DNA of 64,000 bases from Candidatus Falkowbacteria bacterium GW2011_GWF2_43_32 (GCA_000999715.1 LCGL01000001.1:323139-387138), one strand, 5' to 3'. Counted from the stretch's first letter, positions 3,104 to 60,060 are shown. The notes: a model not told the origin generated them from the letters alone. Numbers and translations are program-made.

Positions 3104-4306
3104 CTACAGATACCGCGGTAAACGGCGCTTGGTTTTCAGGCTGGGAACCTTGATACAATAGATTAAAGCCCAAAAAATCCGGGCCAAACGACTTCGCAAA
3201 TGCCAGCCCCAGAGATTGCCTAAGGCCGATTTTTTACCCAAAGTCAAAAATTCACCGCGATGCTTATAAACAAAAGGCCGCAAGGGTTTGTTGAGCACAA
3301 GTGCTTCAATGTTTCTCGCCGCCACGACAGCCTGTTGATTGGCTACTTGCGCCAATCCGGGAAGAGGTCCCCCGTTTACCAGCAAACAAGAACTGTCCCC
3401 TAAACACAGAACGTTACGATGACCTTTCATTAATAATTCCGGAGTAATTTCCAGCCGGCCATTAACCGCCACCGGCTGATTGCCTAAAAATTCAGGAGTT
3501 TGCGCTTTAAGACCCGCGGCCCAAATAATATTTTCGGCCATAATTTCTTGACCGTTTTGCAAAACAATCCCTCGCGGCGACAAAGATTCCGCCAAAGAAT
3601 TAAAAATAATTTCCACGCCGATTTTATCAAAACATTTTCGAGCTTCGGCTCTCATCCAAGCGGGAAAAGAGGCCAAAATTTCCTGTCCGCGACTAATCAG
3701 TTTTACCGAAAACTCATTATCGCGCAAATGACTGCCCGCACTCAAAAAATGTTTCTGTTGATTCAACAATTGTTCTTGAATATGGGCCGCCAGCTCGACT
3801 CCGGTGGGACCGGCGCCTAAAACGGCAAAAGATAACAGTTGTCGCCGACGTTGTTCGTCACTTTCTTGAGAAGCAAGCAATAAAGCTTTTTCAATTTTGT
3901 CGCTTAAGCGAAGGGCGTCGTCAATGTCTTGAAATTTATAAATTCGGGAGCTTTCTGCCGGAAAAAAAATATCAGCTTTAGCTCCGGTGGCAATAACCAA
4001 AATATCAAAAGTCAAAATCGTTTTTTTCAATCGGACTTGACGCCGCTCCAGATCAACGGCGATTATTTCTTGATGATAAAAAGTCGTCCGCTTATCCAAT
4101 AAGCTCACCAAAGGAATGGCCACCTCGTCCGATCGCAAACGACCGAAAATCAATTCGGGCAACAAAGGAGTAAACAAAAAATAATCTCGCCGATCTACCA
4201 AAGCCAGCTCTATCAGTCCGCGACGCTGAAGCGGCTTTAACAGTTTGGCGGTTTTAATCCCGCCGAATCCCGCTCCCAAAATGACGACTCTTTGTTTATT
4301 TGTCAT
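3104..4306 (-). CDS. ndh: type II NADH dehydrogenase / FAD-dependent pyridine nucleotide-disulfide oxidoreductase
   Basis: 400 aa with an N-terminal VVILGAGFGG Rossmann motif and a second GAGPTGVE dinucleotide-binding motif. The length and layout fit NDH-2. Confidence 0.75.
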   Translation of the reverse strand: MTNKQRVVILGAGFGGIKTAKLLKPLQRRGLIELALVDRRDYFLFTPLLPELIFGRLRSDEVAIPLVSLLDKRTTFYHQEIIAVDLERRQVRLKKTILTFDILVIATGAKADIFFPAESSRIYKFQDIDDALRLSDKIEKALLLASQESDEQRRRQLLSFAVLGAGPTGVELAAHIQEQLLNQQKHFLSAGSHLRDNEFSVKLISRGQEILASFPAWMRAEARKCFDKIGVEIIFNSLAESLSPRGIVLQNGQEIMAENIIWAAGLKAQTPEFLGNQPVAVNGRLEITPELLMKGHRNVLCLGDSSCLLVNGGPLPGLAQVANQQAVVAARNIEALVLNKPLRPFVYKHRGEFLTLGKKSALGNLWGWHLRSRLARIFWALIYCIKVPSLKTKRRLPRYL

Positions 4307-4334
4307 GGCCGAATTTTATCATAAATTGTCTTAA

Positions 4335-4364
4335 TAAAAAAGAGCTCCCGAAAGCTCATTTTTT
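4335..4364. terminator. bidirectional intrinsic terminator upstream of ndh
   Basis: Hairpin GAGCTCCCGAAAGCTC (4342-4357), flanked by an A-run on the left and TTTTTT on the right. Confidence 0.6.
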
Positions 4365-4416
4365 GTAAATATGGTATTTTCACCAACTATTTTTGGGCAT
4401 TAAACCATAAATTAAT

Positions 4417-4444
4417 ATAAAAAGCCCACGTTTTATAGTGGGCT
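4417..4444 (-). terminator. intrinsic terminator of mini-unit 1
   Basis: Minus strand reads AGCCCAC-TATAAAAC-GTGGGCT followed by TTTTTAT. Confidence 0.6.
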
Positions 4445-4480
4445 CTTGCCTTCTCCTTTAAAGGCATTAAACAGTTTGTG

Positions 4481-4582
4481 TTAATAACAACCCTGTTTCC
4501 CAGTCGTTTTCAACAACTCCCTCTTTTGGTGATTTCGTGGCGAGCCGCGAGAATTTTTAACACTTTTTCTAATGTACTTCAT
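4481..4582 (-). CDS. 33-aa highly basic small protein (mini-unit 1), function unknown
   Basis: Own translation: MKYIRKSVKNSRGSPRNHQKRELLKTTGKQGCY*. A GGAGG sequence lies 8 nt upstream of the ATG, which is rare in this window. The ORF has its own TTGACA-17-TATTAT promoter and its own terminator. It is too short for the ORF track. Confidence 0.45.
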   Translation of the reverse strand: MKYIRKSVKNSRGSPRNHQKRELLKTTGKQGCY

Positions 4583-4623
4583 GTCTTTTTCCTCCATATT
4601 AAGTTAATACTAAAGACATTTAA

Positions 4624-4652
4624 ATAATATATCTGTTATACCTTCTTGTCAA
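4624..4652 (-). promoter_or_regulatory. sigma70-type promoter of mini-unit 1
   Basis: Minus strand: TTGACA (4652-4647), 17-nt spacer, TATTAT (4629-4624). Confidence 0.6.
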
Positions 4653-4733
4653 TTGGTTTACTTTCTCACAAAGAATCTATATTTTTAAAACAAAAAATGA
4701 CCATAAAATTATTTTTATACACCCCCTTACGGG

Positions 4734-4793
4734 GTGGCTAACCGCAAAACTTGGCAAACTTTTTTGATGGAGTGCTTGATACATTAAAAAAAA
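4734..4793. repeat. conserved inter-unit module, copy M1
   Basis: Plus strand: gtggctaaccgcaaaacttggcaaacttttttgatggagtgcttgatacattaaaaaaaacc. The first 40 nt differ from M4 at only 2 positions. All four copies share the core AAACTTG(G/A)(C/A)AAACTTTTTTGAT. Confidence 0.85.
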
Positions 4794-5013
4794 CCACCTA
4801 CATGAGATGGTTTTTGTAAAATAGTTCTTTAAGATACCGCAGTGATATCGCAATCCGCAAAGAGCTTCGGCCCACCCTCACAGGATGATTTTTTTATGCC
4901 TTAGCTACAATTCTGGGTTATCAACTCTTAGTGAGGACTTCCCCTTTAATTAGGTTAACCATCTTGCGAGTGATGGTCAGATACTTTGCCTAACTTTCTC
5001 AAAAAGAACTATA
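4785..5013 (-). ncRNA. candidate non-coding RNA A (mini-unit 2), about 229 nt, unknown family
   Basis: A promoter (TTGACT-16-TAAGAT) lies upstream. The terminator hairpin AACCATCT-CATGT-AGGTGGTT plus a U8 run is at 4812-4784. No start codon with a usable ORF is present. The 5' end (5012-5003) is perfectly complementary over 10 bp to 4830-4821, just before the terminator. There is also an internal hairpin ACCATC/GATGGT. Confidence 0.5.
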
Positions 5014-5018
5014 TTTAA

Positions 5019-5046
5019 ATCTTAACATTAGTATTCAAAAAGTCAA
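5019..5046 (-). promoter_or_regulatory. sigma70-type promoter of mini-unit 2
   Basis: Minus strand: TTGACT (5046-5041), 16-nt spacer, TAAGAT (5024-5019). Confidence 0.5.
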
Positions 5047-5112
5047 TAGATTGTACAACATTAAACTTAAAACAAAAAATAATTCCTAAAAAGAAATTGT
5101 TTTTATATATGA

Positions 5113-5176
5113 GTGGCTATTCGAGAAACTTGAAAAACTTTTTTGATTAAATATTTGATAAATTGATATAAAAAAG
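5113..5176. repeat. conserved inter-unit module, copy M2
   Basis: Plus strand: gtggctattcgagaaacttgaaaaacttttttgattaaatatttgataaattgatataaaaaag. It differs from M3 at about 1 position over roughly 48 nt. Confidence 0.85.
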
Positions 5177-5199
5177 ACCCGCGATATTGTTACGGATCT
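5170..5199 (-). terminator. intrinsic terminator of mini-unit 3
   Basis: Minus strand: AGATCCG-(11-nt loop)-CGGGTCT followed by TTTTTTA. Confidence 0.6.
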
Positions 5200-5245
5200 T
5201 ACAGTTTTTATTTAAACATATTTTGAGGGCATGAGCTAATAGTGA

Positions 5246-5398
5246 TTAAACCTCAAAATTTTCCCTAATGGAGTAAAGAAACGCCAACATGAAAGCTGCG
5301 CCAGCGCAAGCTAGAGTTATAACTGATGCTTCAGACTTCCAGTAAAAAACAAAAATGCCAAAAAGAATTGCTGTAAAATAATTAAAGAATGTTTTCAT
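5246..5398 (-). CDS. 50-aa two-TM hydrophobic peptide (mini-unit 3)
   Basis: Codon-by-codon translation: MKTFFNYFTAILFGIFVFYWKSEASVITLACAGAAFMLAFLYSIRENFEV*. An AGGAG sequence lies 9 nt upstream of the ATG. The ORF has its own promoter, a roughly 115-nt leader and a terminator. Confidence 0.5.
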   Translation of the reverse strand: MKTFFNYFTAILFGIFVFYWKSEASVITLACAGAAFMLAFLYSIRENFEV

Positions 5399-5430
5399 AA
5401 CTTATGACTCCTATTTTTAATGTTAAATAT

Positions 5431-5486
5431 AATTAGATTAATTATTAAGTTTACTAACATTAATAGACTTAATAATTAATCTAATT
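5431..5486. promoter_or_regulatory. perfect 20-bp inverted repeat in the 5' leader of mini-unit 3
   Basis: aattagattaattattaagt (5431-5450) is the exact reverse complement of 5467-5486, with a 16-nt loop. It lies between the predicted start site (about 5512) and the SD/ATG (5398). Confidence 0.8.
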
Positions 5487-5519
5487 TTAACCTTTTTGTA
5501 ATGAACTATATAACTAAAT

Positions 5520-5548
5520 AATATATCACATATATTATATTTTGTCAA
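5520..5548 (-). promoter_or_regulatory. sigma70-type promoter of mini-unit 3 (extended -10)
   Basis: Minus strand: TTGACA (5548-5543), 17-nt spacer ending in TGTGA, TATATT (5525-5520). Confidence 0.6.
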
Positions 5549-5635
5549 TCAATTTATATTATTTAATACTGTTGAGCCACATTTTAACCTTACATAATAG
5601 AAAAACCGAGCTTTCGGACCCGTGCTTTCCTTAAT

Positions 5636-5929
5636 CTATTCCCAAAAAATTAATACCAATGAAACAACCCCCAACAAGAAACCGATGATTTGAATTCTAT
5701 TAATCGGCTCCTTATAAAGCACCATCCCCAATATTACTGCGATAATAGCCGACGCCACAGAAAAAATAATTGCTCCTCTTCCTAGTCCGGCTCCATTTTT
5801 AAGAGAAAACAACCAAAAAGAATTTGCCACCAAATAAAGAGCAAGGCTGATTATTGCAAACCAAATTATTTTTTTTAGCGACCACTCTTTTGCAAATACG
5901 TCAGCAACTGCTTCAAAAATTATTAACAA
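5636..5929 (-). CDS. SMR/EmrE-like small multidrug-resistance-family membrane protein, possibly 5'-truncated
   Basis: 97 aa with four TM segments. The motif IIFEAVADVFAKEW aligns with the EmrE TM1 segment ILAEVIGTTLMKF, including the membrane-embedded Glu. The start is a TTG with no SD, only 5 nt from module M3. Confidence 0.5.
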   Translation of the reverse strand: MLIIFEAVADVFAKEWSLKKIIWFAIISLALYLVANSFWLFSLKNGAGLGRGAIIFSVASAIIAVILGMVLYKEPINRIQIIGFLLGVVSLVLIFWE

Positions 5930-5934
5930 TAAAA

Positions 5935-5988
5935 GCGGAAAACTTGAAAAACTTTTTTGATTAAGTATTTGATAAATTGATATAAAGA
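5935..5988. repeat. conserved inter-unit module, copy M3 (left part missing)
   Basis: Plus strand: gcggaaaacttgaaaaacttttttgattaagtatttgataaattgatataaagag. It lacks the GTGGCTA.. left end found in M1, M2 and M4. The SMR-like ORF starts where that end would be. Confidence 0.85.
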
Positions 5989-6238
5989 GAGGGCTAATTG
6001 CTTAGCCCTCAAAAATTTAGAACTCGTTGAACTGCTTTCAAGGCTATTTCACTCTATTCGCCCCTTCGATTAATAAGGACGGTATCTTATTTTTGACTCC
6101 GCTAAAGCTGGCGCCCTAGGTTCACAGTCTCCCGCCTATTCTGCACATTACTAATCTATCTTCAAGCCAACATACAGGAATTGGACCCGCTGGAGATATA
6201 ATCTCTTGCGCCCATTGCGCTACATTGTTTCTAAATTT
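5985..6238 (-). ncRNA. candidate non-coding RNA B (mini-unit 5), about 255 nt, unknown family
   Basis: The promoter is TTGACA-17-TAATAT. The terminator-like hairpin GAGGGCTAAGCAATTAGCCCTC (6010-5989) has only a weak U-tract. No ORF longer than 9 codons is present. The 5' end (6238-6228) pairs over 11 bp with 6023-6013, just before the terminal hairpin, which is the same architecture as RNA A. Confidence 0.45.
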
Positions 6239-6244
6239 AATTAA

Positions 6245-6273
6245 ATATTATAAATAAAATCAACTTTTGTCAA
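6245..6273 (-). promoter_or_regulatory. sigma70-type promoter of mini-unit 5
   Basis: Minus strand: TTGACA (6273-6268), 17-nt spacer, TAATAT (6250-6245). Confidence 0.6.
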
Positions 6274-6346
6274 CAAAAATACAGCAAGATCTATTTTAAC
6301 CCTCATATCCCAGAAAAAAGCAAAATAGTTCATTTTTCCCAAATAG

Positions 6347-6410
6347 GTGGTTAATCGCAAAACTTGGCAAACTTTTTTGATGGAGTATTTGGTGAGTTGA
6401 TAAAAAAGAG
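6347..6410. repeat. conserved inter-unit module, copy M4
   Basis: Plus strand: gtggttaatcgcaaaacttggcaaacttttttgatggagtatttggtgagttgataaaaaagag. Confidence 0.85.
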
Positions 6411-6433
6411 ACCCTTGATGTTATCGCGGGTCT
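6402..6433 (-). terminator. intrinsic terminator of mini-unit 6
   Basis: Minus strand: AGACCC-(12-nt loop)-GGGTCT followed by CTTTTTTAT. Confidence 0.6.
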
Positions 6434-6459
6434 AGAAATTAGGTAATAAAATCTTTAAT

Positions 6460-6609
6460 TTACATAAACATCAGAGACATCAAAATAAATACCGCAGCAA
6501 TAGCCCACGCAAGCGATGATTTTTTAGATTTTTTTTTAAAACTAAAATATAAACAAAGAATACCGGTAATGAATACTAACACTTTTAAAATTAGAATAAA
6601 AATTTCCAT
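6460..6609 (-). CDS. 49-aa two-TM hydrophobic peptide (mini-unit 6)
   Basis: Codon-by-codon translation: MEIFILILKVLVFITGILCLYFSFKKKSKKSSLAWAIAAVFILMSLMFM*. It has the same TM-charged loop-TM layout as the 5246-5398 peptide. Its leader carries a degenerate version of the unit-3 palindrome. The SD is weak (AGAAA). Confidence 0.4.
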   Translation of the reverse strand: MEIFILILKVLVFITGILCLYFSFKKKSKKSSLAWAIAAVFILMSLMFM

Positions 6610-6717
6610 TATTTCTATTTTTTAATTTAACAATTCGATTAATTCTTAAATTTACTATTTATAATAAACTTAATAATTAACCCAATCGTTTTTTGTAAAA
6701 GAACTATATAACGAAAT

Positions 6718-6746
6718 ATCATATCACATTTACTATTTTTTGTCAA
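6718..6746 (-). promoter_or_regulatory. sigma70-type promoter of mini-unit 6 (extended -10)
   Basis: Minus strand: TTGACA (6746-6741), 17-nt spacer ending in TGTGA, TATGAT (6723-6718). Confidence 0.6.
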
Positions 6747-6838
6747 TTAATTTGTCTTCCCACTAGGGGGTAACAAGACCAAAACAAAAAATAACCCCAA
6801 TCCGCCAGCCGGCGGAGGAGTTATTTTCGCTAATATTA

Positions 6839-7057
6839 GGGTGCCTACTGGGAGTATCTCACTCAGCCGCCGCCGGAAACGCGGCGGCTTCGCTCGTCCT
6901 GGGTTGGCGCCGAGCCCTGCGCCAGCTCGGGTTCGTCGACGCTCGTCCGCTCATTTCGGCTTCCGCCTCAACTCGCGTCTCGCTTCCAACCTGTTCAACT
7001 TCCCGGCTAACGCCGACAGTAATAAAAGAACGCGCAAATGCGCGTTTTTTTATTACT
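6839..7057 (-). repeat. tRNA-His trailer module: hairpin, inverted T-arm copy, GC-rich spacer, 17-bp repeat of the tRNA 3' end
   Basis: gggtgcctactgggagt occurs at 6839-6855 and again at 7058-7074 inside the tRNA (17/17). The hairpin is at 7018-7057. gttcaacttccc (6993-7004) is an inverted T-arm copy. The spacer at 6856-6992 is GC-rich. Confidence 0.85.
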
Positions 7058-18983: not shown

Positions 18984-18991
18984 TCTTCCTG

Positions 18992-19065
18992 TGCGCCTAG
19001 ATGGACTTGAACCATCGACCCCCGCTTTATAAGAGCGGTGCTCTAACCACCTGAGCTATAGGCGC
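18992..19065 (-). tRNA. tRNA-Ile with anticodon UAU
   Basis: Read as GCGCCTA-TA-GCTC-AGGTGGTTA-GAGC-A-CCGCT-CTTATAA-AGCGG-GGGTC-GATGG-TTCAAGT-CCATC-TAGGCGC-A. The anticodon loop CTTATAA gives U34 A35 U36. Confidence 0.75.
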
Positions 19066-39522: not shown

Positions 39523-39593
39523 TCGGGCCGCCGGGAATTGAACCCGGGTCACACGCACCCGAAGCGTGTATAATGCCGTTATACCACGGCCCG
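39523..39593 (-). tRNA. tRNA-Pro (anticodon CGG)
   Basis: Acceptor CGGGCCG/CGGCCCG+A, anticodon stem CACGC/GCGTG, loop TTCGGGT, T-loop TTCAATT. Confidence 0.75.
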
Positions 39594-39601
39594 ATTTATT
39601 A

Positions 39602-39700
39602 GTGGACTTGAGGGGACTTTCGCGCTCGTTCGCCGCTTGTTCGAGTTCCTTTCGATCAGTCAATAAATTATTCAGACAAAGCCTGAATAATTTATTGATG
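39602..39700 (-). repeat. tRNA-Ala(CGC) trailer module: hairpin, inverted T-arm copy, GC-rich spacer, 17-bp repeat of the tRNA 3' end
   Basis: gtggacttgaggggact occurs at 39602-39618 and at 39700-39716 in the tRNA (17/17). A 16-bp-stem hairpin is at 39661-39697. gttcgagttcc (39639-39649) is an inverted T-arm copy with 1 mismatch. The spacer is ttcgcgctcgttcgccgctt. Confidence 0.85.
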
Positions 39701-39773
39701 TGGACTTGAGGGGACTCGAACCCCTTACCTCTGCAATGCGAATGCAGCGCTCTACCAGATGAGCTACAAGCCC
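39701..39773 (-). tRNA. tRNA-Ala (anticodon CGC)
   Basis: Acceptor GGGCTTG/CAAGTCC with G3:U70, anticodon stem CTGCA/TGCAG, loop TTCGCAT. Confidence 0.85.
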
Positions 39774-39862
39774 TTGTGGAGTTTAAATTAGCCTGGATTC
39801 GTCATTCCCCATCCACTATCCGTTATTTGTCGCTGACGGAGGCGGAGAATCAAGACCATTTG

Positions 39863-41657: not shown

Positions 41658-43065
<1,408 letters not shown>

Positions 43066-50672: not shown

Positions 50673-50919
50673 CTAAAAAAAAGAACCCCACCTGCGTGGG
50701 GTTCTTTTTTTAAGATTGAAAGCATAAGGGACTTGAAAGCCGGAGGCGATGCGCACTTGTGCGCCGCCGAGGCCGGGTCGGGGCGCTTAGCGAGTGAGAC
50801 TTGCGAAGCAAGCGAGCGAGGCTTAGCGACCGTGACCAAGTCCCTTATGGTCCACTAATGAAAACAACCCGAACTGCTTTGGGTTGTTTTCATTAAAGAT
50901 AAAAATAAGGGACTTGAAC
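50673..50919 (+). repeat. tRNA-Ala(GGC) trailer module, doubled: hairpin, inverted T-arm, GC-rich spacer, 22-bp 3'-end repeat, second hairpin, second inverted T-arm
   Basis: caagtcccttatggtccactaa occurs at 50655-50676 and 50837-50858 (22/22). cataagggacttgaa (50723-50737) and ataagggacttgaac (50905-50919) are 15-nt exact inverted copies of the T-arm. Hairpins are at 50676-50712 and 50859-50895. The GC-rich spacer is at 50738-50836. Confidence 0.85.
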
Positions 50920-59919: not shown

Positions 59920-60060
59920 AGAGCGGGTAAGGGGAATAGCGTGCTCGATTATTCGTCGTCGCTTCCGCTCCTCCTCATATCTCGCTCGCTACCTGTCCGA
60001 TTCCCGGCTCGACTCTTATAAAATAAAACAGCCCCTGACGAGGCCGTTTCATTTTATAAG
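59920..60060 (-). repeat. tRNA-Gly trailer module: hairpin, inverted T-arm copy, GC-rich spacer, 18-bp repeat of the tRNA 3' end
   Basis: agagcgggtaaggggaat occurs at 59920-59937 and 60059-60076 (18/18). The hairpin is at 60015-60060. gtccgattccc (59995-60005) is an exact inverted T-arm copy. The spacer at 59938-59994 contains ctcgctcgct and cgtcgtcgcttccgc. Confidence 0.85.

Follow-up and report, generated by a model that had tools for sequence, protein, structure and literature searches.

Why is the gap between two neighboring genes, tRNA-Ala(CGC) and tRNA-Pro(CGG), filled by a 98-bp trailer that ends in an exact copy of the 3' end of the upstream tRNA, and is this trailer the smallest working version of a module that recurs in the same genome or the remains of a longer one? 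We addressed this question in a 64-kb stretch of DNA (hereafter the window; coordinates are counted from its first nucleotide), and we compared it with other sequences, which carry L numbers. The comparison makes it probable that the trailer is an internally deleted and probably non-functional relic of a family of tRNA-trailer modules that resemble the RtT element of E. coli.

The initial annotation of the locus had described a hairpin, an inverted T-arm copy, a spacer and a 17-nt repeat on the minus strand, with a period of 98 bp and 8 nt left before tRNA-Pro(CGG), and all of these segments lie where it had placed them. The host tRNA of the module, tRNA-Ala(CGC), occupies 39701-39773 on the minus strand (ARAGORN; Rfam tRNA, 66.4 bits), and its 3' end, AGTCCCCTCAAGTCCAC (39700-39716, minus strand), is the first copy of a 17-nt segment made up of A58-A73 and C74. 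The module starts 3 nt after the end of the tRNA, on the same strand, with a 37-nt AT-rich hairpin (39661-39697, minus strand). This hairpin had been reported as a perfect 16-bp stem; the hairpin stands, but its perfection does not, because the 3' arm reads TCTGAATAATTTATTG instead of CCTG..., and the stem therefore consists of 15 Watson-Crick pairs and a closing G.T wobble, with the loop CTTTG. An 11-nt linker, ACTGATCGAAA (39650-39660, minus strand), leads to the inverted segment GGAACTCGAAC (39639-39649, minus strand), which is the reverse complement of tRNA positions 53-63 and ends at G53; it matches at 10 of 11 positions, and the single mismatch, which the initial annotation had also counted, lies opposite C61. 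There follow a 20-nt spacer, AAGCGGCGAACGAGCGCGAA (39619-39638, minus strand), identified by alignment and by the covariance model R1 as the remnant of a structured core, and the direct repeat (39602-39618, minus strand), an exact second copy of tRNA positions 58-74 (17/17). An outer stem between the inverted segment and the direct repeat could still form 5 of 6 pairs. The 8 nt that remain, TAATAAAT (39594-39601, minus strand), border tRNA-Pro(CGG) (39523-39593, minus strand), the next gene in a conserved Pro-Ala-Pro tRNA cluster. Allowing up to two mismatches, the 17-mer occurs at only these two places in the 64 kb, and 0 occurrences are expected based on 100 shuffles; the repeat, which is as exact as had been claimed, goes far beyond chance. 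The inverted 11-mer, with at most one mismatch, has 7 matches where 0.85 would be expected by chance, and the additional ones are for the most part the T-arms of tRNAs.

The flanking LytR-family gene places the organism among the Patescibacteria (CPR bacteria), close to Falkowbacteria. With this gene we found 37 syntenic loci, and the gene order Pro(GGG)-Ala(CGC)-Pro(CGG)-LytR is conserved across them. The gap between Ala(CGC) and Pro(CGG) is 2-37 nt in approximately 20 related species, compared with 106 nt here and 218 nt in L018; the 98-bp trailer is therefore an insertion in an otherwise tight Pro-Ala-Pro tRNA operon. The residual TAATAAAT resembles the short ancestral Ala-Pro spacer of relatives (TAAA in L011, TAATAAACCA in L016). 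As in a genomic island, direct repeats of the tRNA 3' end are present at both borders of the insert; no recombinase gene lies within or next to it, and its neighbors are LytR, Der, Pth, TrpRS and similar genes. Co-transcription of Ala and Pro through the trailer, a possibility raised in the initial annotation, is plausible on the predictions made here. In tRNA sense, no promoter-like site was predicted between tRNA-Ala and tRNA-Pro(CGG), the only one lying upstream of tRNA-Pro(GGG), and the AT-rich hairpin, unlike the tRNA-His hairpin described below, received no terminator score.

The same cluster contains a second enlarged spacer. Between Pro(GGG) and Ala(CGC), the window has 88-89 nt (39774-39862, minus strand), compared with 8-32 nt in relatives. 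This spacer contains GGGGAATGACGAATCC, which is loosely similar to a GAGAAC-type inverted T-arm segment of tRNA-Pro(GGG), and it lacks a direct repeat; it may be an older, more decayed relic. One same-species assembly (L003:1-3340) departs from the window exactly at the 5' edge of tRNA-Ala(CGC) (window 39774), and beyond the divergence point it carries a 613-aa gene and an inverted tRNA-Ala(GGC). Either the DNA has been rearranged at these similar tRNA-Ala sequences, or the assembly is chimeric there.

The trailer had also been recognized as a short copy of a module seen after tRNA-His, and the layout of hairpin, inverted segment and repeat does recur in the window, after tRNA-His, tRNA-Ala(GGC) and tRNA-Gly(TCC); the three-part signature is absent after the other seven window tRNAs. 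The copy after tRNA-His is full length (6839-7057, minus strand), with a hairpin (7057-7018), a linker (7017-7005), an inverted segment (7004-6993), a 137-nt core (6992-6856) and a direct repeat (6855-6839). After tRNA-Gly(TCC), a shortened copy (59921-60059, minus strand) has a hairpin (60059-60016), an inverted segment (60005-59995), a core remnant with P3 only (59994-59938) and a direct repeat (59937-59921), and it is approximately 92 nt shorter than its counterpart in L103. The copy after tRNA-Ala(GGC) (50674-50919, plus strand) represents a distinct conserved subfamily, in which a hairpin (50674-50713), an inverted segment (50723-50737), a 99-nt core (50738-50836) and a direct repeat (50837-50855) are followed by a second hairpin (50856-50895) and a second inverted segment (50905-50919). 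This type is conserved, with its own compensatory changes, in L103 and L114. A promoter scan found no promoter-like site preceding the His core, and a module hairpin that stands in a terminal position resembles a true terminator; both observations weigh against the reading, set out below, that intact modules are transcribed.

Other features of the window were recorded alongside these copies. The approximately 2.5 kb downstream of the His module (4307-6830) have almost no long ORF and look degraded; they include 97 aa of a fragmentary EamA/SMR-type transporter (5636-5929), and a strong promoter-like site was predicted at 6746-6718. An isolated and possibly spurious 89-nt match to bacterial 23S rRNA (model positions 2126-2215) lies approximately 700 nt past the His module (6068-6156, minus strand), with no 23S gene around it; its score of 50.4 bits is exactly at threshold, and the match was absent in a sub-scan of 4300-6850. 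A 16S rRNA gene stands alone (41659-43065, minus strand; 1407 nt vs. a 1533-position model), with no adjacent 23S or 5S gene. At 18991-19065 (minus strand), a tRNA-Ile with anticodon TAT (UAU), an uncommon bacterial way to read AUA, adjoins tRNA-Val(GAC).

What a complete module looks like is evident from copies elsewhere. We scanned metagenomes with a conserved core block and then with R1, which yielded 86 copies located 62-74 nt after many different tRNAs of at least 12 types (Glu, Leu, Ser, Gln, Ala, Val, Gly, Asp, Cys, Trp, His and Thr-adjacent). A complete module consists, in order, of its own hairpin, a short linker, the reverse complement of tRNA positions 53-63, a core and a copy of positions 58-74. 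The conserved core, approximately 105-137 nt long, folds into a stem that closes it, a GA-rich rod whose loop is GGAA, and another two hairpins. No Rfam family matched it at gathering or permissive thresholds, and we found no earlier description of such modules in CPR bacteria in the literature searched. The core after the window tRNA-His is approximately 75% identical, with compensatory stems, to the core after tRNA-Ala(CGC) in L018, and the flanks match the local tRNA in each. The survey shows that this holds throughout, as flanks always match the local tRNA and near-identical cores occur beside different tRNAs; for example, cores found next to Gln, Ser and Ala tRNAs share 91-93% identity although their flanks are unrelated.

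When 40 distinct copies are aligned with MAFFT, the five-helix structure has 92.8% of its cells paired, compared with 31-40% when partners are slid, and 24 of 46 pairs change on both sides, a count reached in 0 of 500 shuffles. The frequent G.U pairs identify the tRNA-sense strand as the strand that folds. These data show that the core is a single-strand fold on the tRNA-sense strand and is under selection; a role as single-stranded DNA, in place of RNA, is conceivable. The junctions with tRNA-derived sequence recur at the same positions, with the inverted segment ending at G53 in 30/34 modules and the repeat starting at A58 in 16/22 and ending at C74 in 18/22. An inverted copy of positions 53-63 was present no more than 150 nt downstream at 32 of 158 distinct tRNA loci (0 in a reversed-string control). 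We rejected the idea that a tRNA followed by a hairpin and an inverted copy is a general feature of tRNA genes, as this arrangement nearly always comes with the core (the sole exception is the tRNA-Val of L113). A tRNA minihelix mimic, in which an upstream segment would pair with positions 64-73, was also rejected, with a mean of 4.8/11 positions pairing, which is approximately random. The start of the repeat near m1A58 raised the possibility of an origin by reverse transcription of mature tRNA, which was not supported. The repeat ends at C74 and, at genes that do not encode CCA, usually has no CA after it, which indicates that the gene was copied, and not the mature tRNA.

Units of the family are found singly, in tandem, or bracketing one to three co-oriented genes, and tandem units can have differing hairpins and even belong to different subfamilies within one array. 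A second core subfamily includes L088 unit 2, L116 unit 1 and the window Gly copy; in a GC-richer subfamily, tRNA positions 53-76, the hairpin and a perfect inverted copy make up one long palindrome. As expected of a multi-copy repeat, 18/86 copies are cut by contig ends. In L086:3260-3610 (minus strand) and at window 50856-50919 (plus strand), the hairpin and inverted segment appear again after the repeat with no second core, which suggests that the repeating unit can end at different points. The tRNA-Trp modules of L092, L128 and L133 have a high-scoring core and an inverted segment but no direct repeat, and a strong promoter directly after the core is followed by small HTH/toxin-like genes; because these copies keep the core without the repeat, the core appears to be the selected part. 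A recurrent "protein" downstream of modules was dismissed as a spurious antisense ORF over the GC-rich core; GC- and purine-rich cores yield such arginine-rich antisense ORFs, which group into a false protein family, in L144:143-604, L135:8184-8633, L086:3028-3567 and 8 others. A phage or plasmid origin was likewise rejected, as 0 of 13 pattern matches in viral contigs were family members and no homologue was found among annotated phages and plasmids.

Measured against the complete module, the Ala(CGC) copy has lost its interior. In L106, L018 and L088, full-length modules with a homologous hairpin are found at this very site between Ala(CGC) and Pro(CGG), and the window hairpin is of the same lineage as theirs. 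Aligned with these modules, the window core keeps approximately 13-14 nt of the 5' end, which matches AAGCGGCGAGCGAG of L079:4877, and approximately 6 nt of the 3' end, and approximately 114 nt are missing, including helices P2-P5. R1 aligned to the flanks only (10.8 bits, E = 0.07; 17 nt vs. a consensus of 131). Across the window, R1 scores form a decay series, from 149 bits for tRNA-His through 29.5 for tRNA-Gly(TCC) and 13.4 for tRNA-Ala(GGC) to 10.8 for tRNA-Ala(CGC). The position 3' of the tRNA, the inverted copy of 53-63 and the repeat of 58-74 are all retained, and the P2-P5 core is gone; judged by its sequence, the Ala(CGC) copy is a relic and not an intact member of the R1 family. That the 17/17 repeat and the hairpin were kept could reflect recent decay or some residual role.

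The flanking repeats allow a second reading, which we regard as possible but doubtful. Integration into tRNA genes classically leaves 16-19-bp repeats of the tRNA 3' end, and the module might accordingly be a miniature, non-autonomous integrative element that enters the tRNA 3' end by site-specific recombination, with the window copy as a scar. The 17-nt repeat would then be the attL/attR identity block, the core would be an arm or accessory region, and the recombinase would act in trans. The make-up of the arrays is consistent with this reading, since tandem units with their own hairpins and mixed core subfamilies are what successive insertions would leave, and related genomes hold different modules at the same tRNA-Gly.

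Serine-recombinase islands that use the same sequences also favor integration. Small islands are located at tRNA 3'-end sequence in L085:1-3600, L146, L056:9210-10751, L095, L100 and L079:3320-6100, either in the tRNA gene itself or in a module repeat, and the repeat therefore acts as an extra attachment site. Some of them encode a large serine recombinase (Resolvase, Recombinase and Zn-ribbon), and their cargo includes Fic, HD, PEP-utiliser, IMPase, response-regulator and M78 genes. Like these tRNA-targeting islands, the module is bracketed by a 17-19-nt repeat of the tRNA 3' end, leaves the tRNA gene intact and piles up in arrays at the same tRNA, and real large-serine-recombinase islands occupy these very sites in related contigs. 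However, the island junctions resemble a pair of attP half-sites in inverted orientation, in which one side has GTTCCAA-N5-6 together with part of a tRNA 3' end and the other has a AGTTTGTCAA-like sequence, a signature that is seen in L085, L146, L079, L082 and others and is absent from 39594-39700. These junctions (GTTCCAA... / ...TTGACAA) differ from those of the module, which are fixed at G53 and A58. The module, unlike the islands, is only approximately 100-220 bp long, has no recombinase or cargo, and combines an inverted T-loop copy with a covarying structured core. The gene islands are an entity separate from the modules. Against the integrative reading, moreover, no recombinase gene was found in or beside any module in the 64-kb window (nor were reverse transcriptase or nuclease genes found beside them), and three observations are left unexplained: the exact G53 end of the inverted copy, the sense-strand G.U covariation of the core, and the identical architecture of the E. 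coli RtT repeat, an expressed RNA. As a route by which modules spread, integration of this kind is a tentative possibility and is partly compatible with the trailer being a deleted relic.

The initial annotation had favored a different view, in which the 98-bp copy keeps just the essential parts of the module, including a shared GCGAACGAGCGCG core, works like the long copies and offers the best template for a consensus. We consider this improbable. The flanks are indeed intact (repeat, 17/17; hairpin, 15 bp plus wobble; inverted segment, 10/11), and the copy is identical in three independent assemblies; however, these assemblies represent one species, so their identity is uninformative with respect to constraint. 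Given the loss of approximately 114 nt relative to the full-length copies in L106, L018 and L088, the GCGAACGAGCGCG "core" is a deletion junction, and what has been lost, helices P2-P5, is the conserved, covarying part of the family. The tRNA-Trp copies, which keep the core and lack the repeat, also argue against a module reduced to its flanks. A decayed copy is unsuitable for defining the element, and with 10.8 bits the Ala(CGC) copy is a poor template; a good one is the tRNA-His copy (149 bits).

It is very unlikely that the module is an RNA-guided or ribozyme element, with the core as scaffold or catalyst and the inverted segment as an internal guide across the 57/58 junction. On this reading, the copy of 58-74 at the 3' side would be a further guide or an exon for replacement, and the outcome would be homing to T-loops or the cutting and exchange of tRNA 3' ends. 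The 5' segment is an exact reverse complement spanning the point at which the 3' copy begins, the scaffold is constant and the flanks match the target, all as this reading would predict. The bridge RNA of IS110 is a dual-guide RNA. By analogy with dual-guide RNAs, the module might present segments complementary to opposite strands of one target on a structured RNA; unlike in those RNAs, its segments overlap and pair with each other, and no associated protein is known. TIGR-Tas has dual-strand guides, to which the flanks, one complementary and the other identical to the top strand, might also be compared. CPR bacteria possess TIGR systems, which employ G.A motifs of the box C/D type, and a TIGR array consists of tandem 36-nt units with two alternating 8-12-nt repeats and 9-nt spacers, adjacent to a Nop-domain Tas gene (PMC12045711). 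The module is not such an array, as it has a single core of approximately 135 nt and no tandem short units, and no Nop-domain gene was present among the neighbors examined.

Other RNA elements were compared as well. In Patescibacteria, tRNA group I introns are inserted in the anticodon loop at 35/36 (PMC13011429); the module lies after the tRNA and has no Intron_gpI match. Nor does the would-be splice site have a U.G; the core is also too short and does not resemble group I or II introns, and Rfam is silent. In a TnpB omega-RNA (IS200/IS605), a scaffold precedes a 3' guide that corresponds to the flank next to a target-adjacent motif, and the module has a fitting geometry, with the scaffold followed by positions 58-74, which directly follow GTTCR at 53-57; the neighbors examined lacked tnpB and tnpA, and no Rfam omega-RNA family matched. 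Three further observations weigh against RNA guidance, namely that the flanks always match the adjacent tRNA and never a distant target, that no partner protein was found among the neighbors examined, and that the tRNA-Trp copies keep the core without the 3' copy. A self-retargeting RNA element, whether guided to insert behind T-loops or serving to repair damaged tRNA 3' ends, is thus a long shot, although if it were true, the class would also include E. coli RtT as a remote member. An origin of the repeat by chance, or by slippage that simply duplicated the end of the tRNA, unrelated to the other loci, has only the small size of the repeat in its favor and can be set aside, given 0 expected chance matches to the 17-mer, a layout common to four window loci and 86 copies elsewhere, and homology to full-length modules at the same site.

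If the trailer is a relic of an RtT-like module, a course of events can be proposed from the E. coli element. Intact modules would be transcribed with or after the tRNA, and the module would be released as an RNA closed by the stem between inverted segment and repeat, with a tRNA-like 3' terminus; in the precursor, the T-arm of the tRNA proper may be an alternative pairing partner of the inverted segment. In the DNA, the duplication of the tRNA 3' end permits unequal recombination, leading to arrays and deletions, and also offers an additional attachment site for serine-recombinase islands. A relic with surviving flanks alone, as in the window, is most likely a mere transcribed spacer between tRNA-Ala and tRNA-Pro. 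The modules have practical consequences as well, because their repeats break CPR metagenome assemblies and create extra serine-recombinase attachment sites, and their cores generate spurious arginine-rich ORFs.

Among known systems, arrays of modules invite comparison with integrons, in which attC, a folded element conserved in structure, lies at the 3' end of co-oriented cassettes that form arrays at one site. Module arrays similarly hold co-oriented genes anchored at one site (L079, L077/L096, L107, L082). Unlike attC, the core is highly conserved in sequence; a tRNA gene serves as the anchor, an integron integrase is absent, and the cargo junctions, unlike those of integrons, are explained by serine-recombinase att sites.

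The closest likeness is to the repeats of the E. coli tyrT-tyrV locus. These 178-bp repeats include a 19-nt direct repeat corresponding to A58-A76 of tRNA-Tyr, and the unit has an inverted T-arm/acceptor segment (GGGGAAGGAT), followed by GAGAAG/C and then by a GA-rich core. In the annotation, the 5' end of the rttR RNA lies 7 nt past tyrV, and its 3' end coincides exactly with that of the first repeat. Within rttR lies tpr, annotated as encoding a "protamine-like protein" (L148:1088-1177), which may be a by-product of composition like the antisense ORFs of the CPR cores. Circular DNA of the E. coli repeat was also considered, and a mobilome study gave no sign of it.

The CPR modules and RtT differ in several respects. 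Their cores have no detectable similarity in sequence or by covariance model. The RtT model (RF00391; gathering threshold, 45 bits), with which the E. coli units score 133-137 bits, had no match in the whole window, none in the His module at E up to 10, and none in L079, L116 and L086 at E up to 1; conversely, R1 matches the E. coli repeat through the flanks only. RtT is known at one tRNA (Tyr) in enterobacteria, whereas the CPR family occurs at no fewer than 12 tRNA types with its flanks re-matched each time. CPR units start with their own hairpin, often terminator-like, which the E. coli units lack, and the CPR repeat ends at C74 and not at A76 because CCA is not encoded there. RtT is an RNA, annotated as rttR; the products of the CPR modules are putative RNAs.

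The likenesses concern the plan of the element. Both follow a tRNA gene immediately, in the same orientation, and form tandem arrays, and in both the last part of the unit directly repeats the tRNA 3' end from A58 onward. The GGAT-GAGAAC form of the inverted segment is also present in 6 CPR copies, where it places tandem G.A opposite G57 and A58. Both interiors are purine- and GC-rich, of GCGAG type, with hairpins, and in both the genuine tRNA T-arm can pair with the inverted segment. The Rfam consensus of RtT, like the CPR model, has an outer stem formed by the inverted segment and the repeat, and the topology is the same, with an inner stem enclosing two hairpins and a 3' region. The link of the CPR modules to RtT thus appears to be one of architecture and topology only, and, as no core similarity is detectable, the modules would be RtT's kind of element without belonging to the same Rfam family. 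For decades, the tyrT-distal repeats and the RtT RNA have been an isolated curiosity with no known mechanism, and the mode of action of RtT is still described as unknown. The presence of an RtT-type plan behind 12 or more tRNA species in a remote phylum with reduced genomes would turn this one-off into a class with testable rules, which concern the G53 and A58 junctions, the outer stem and the GA-rich rod.
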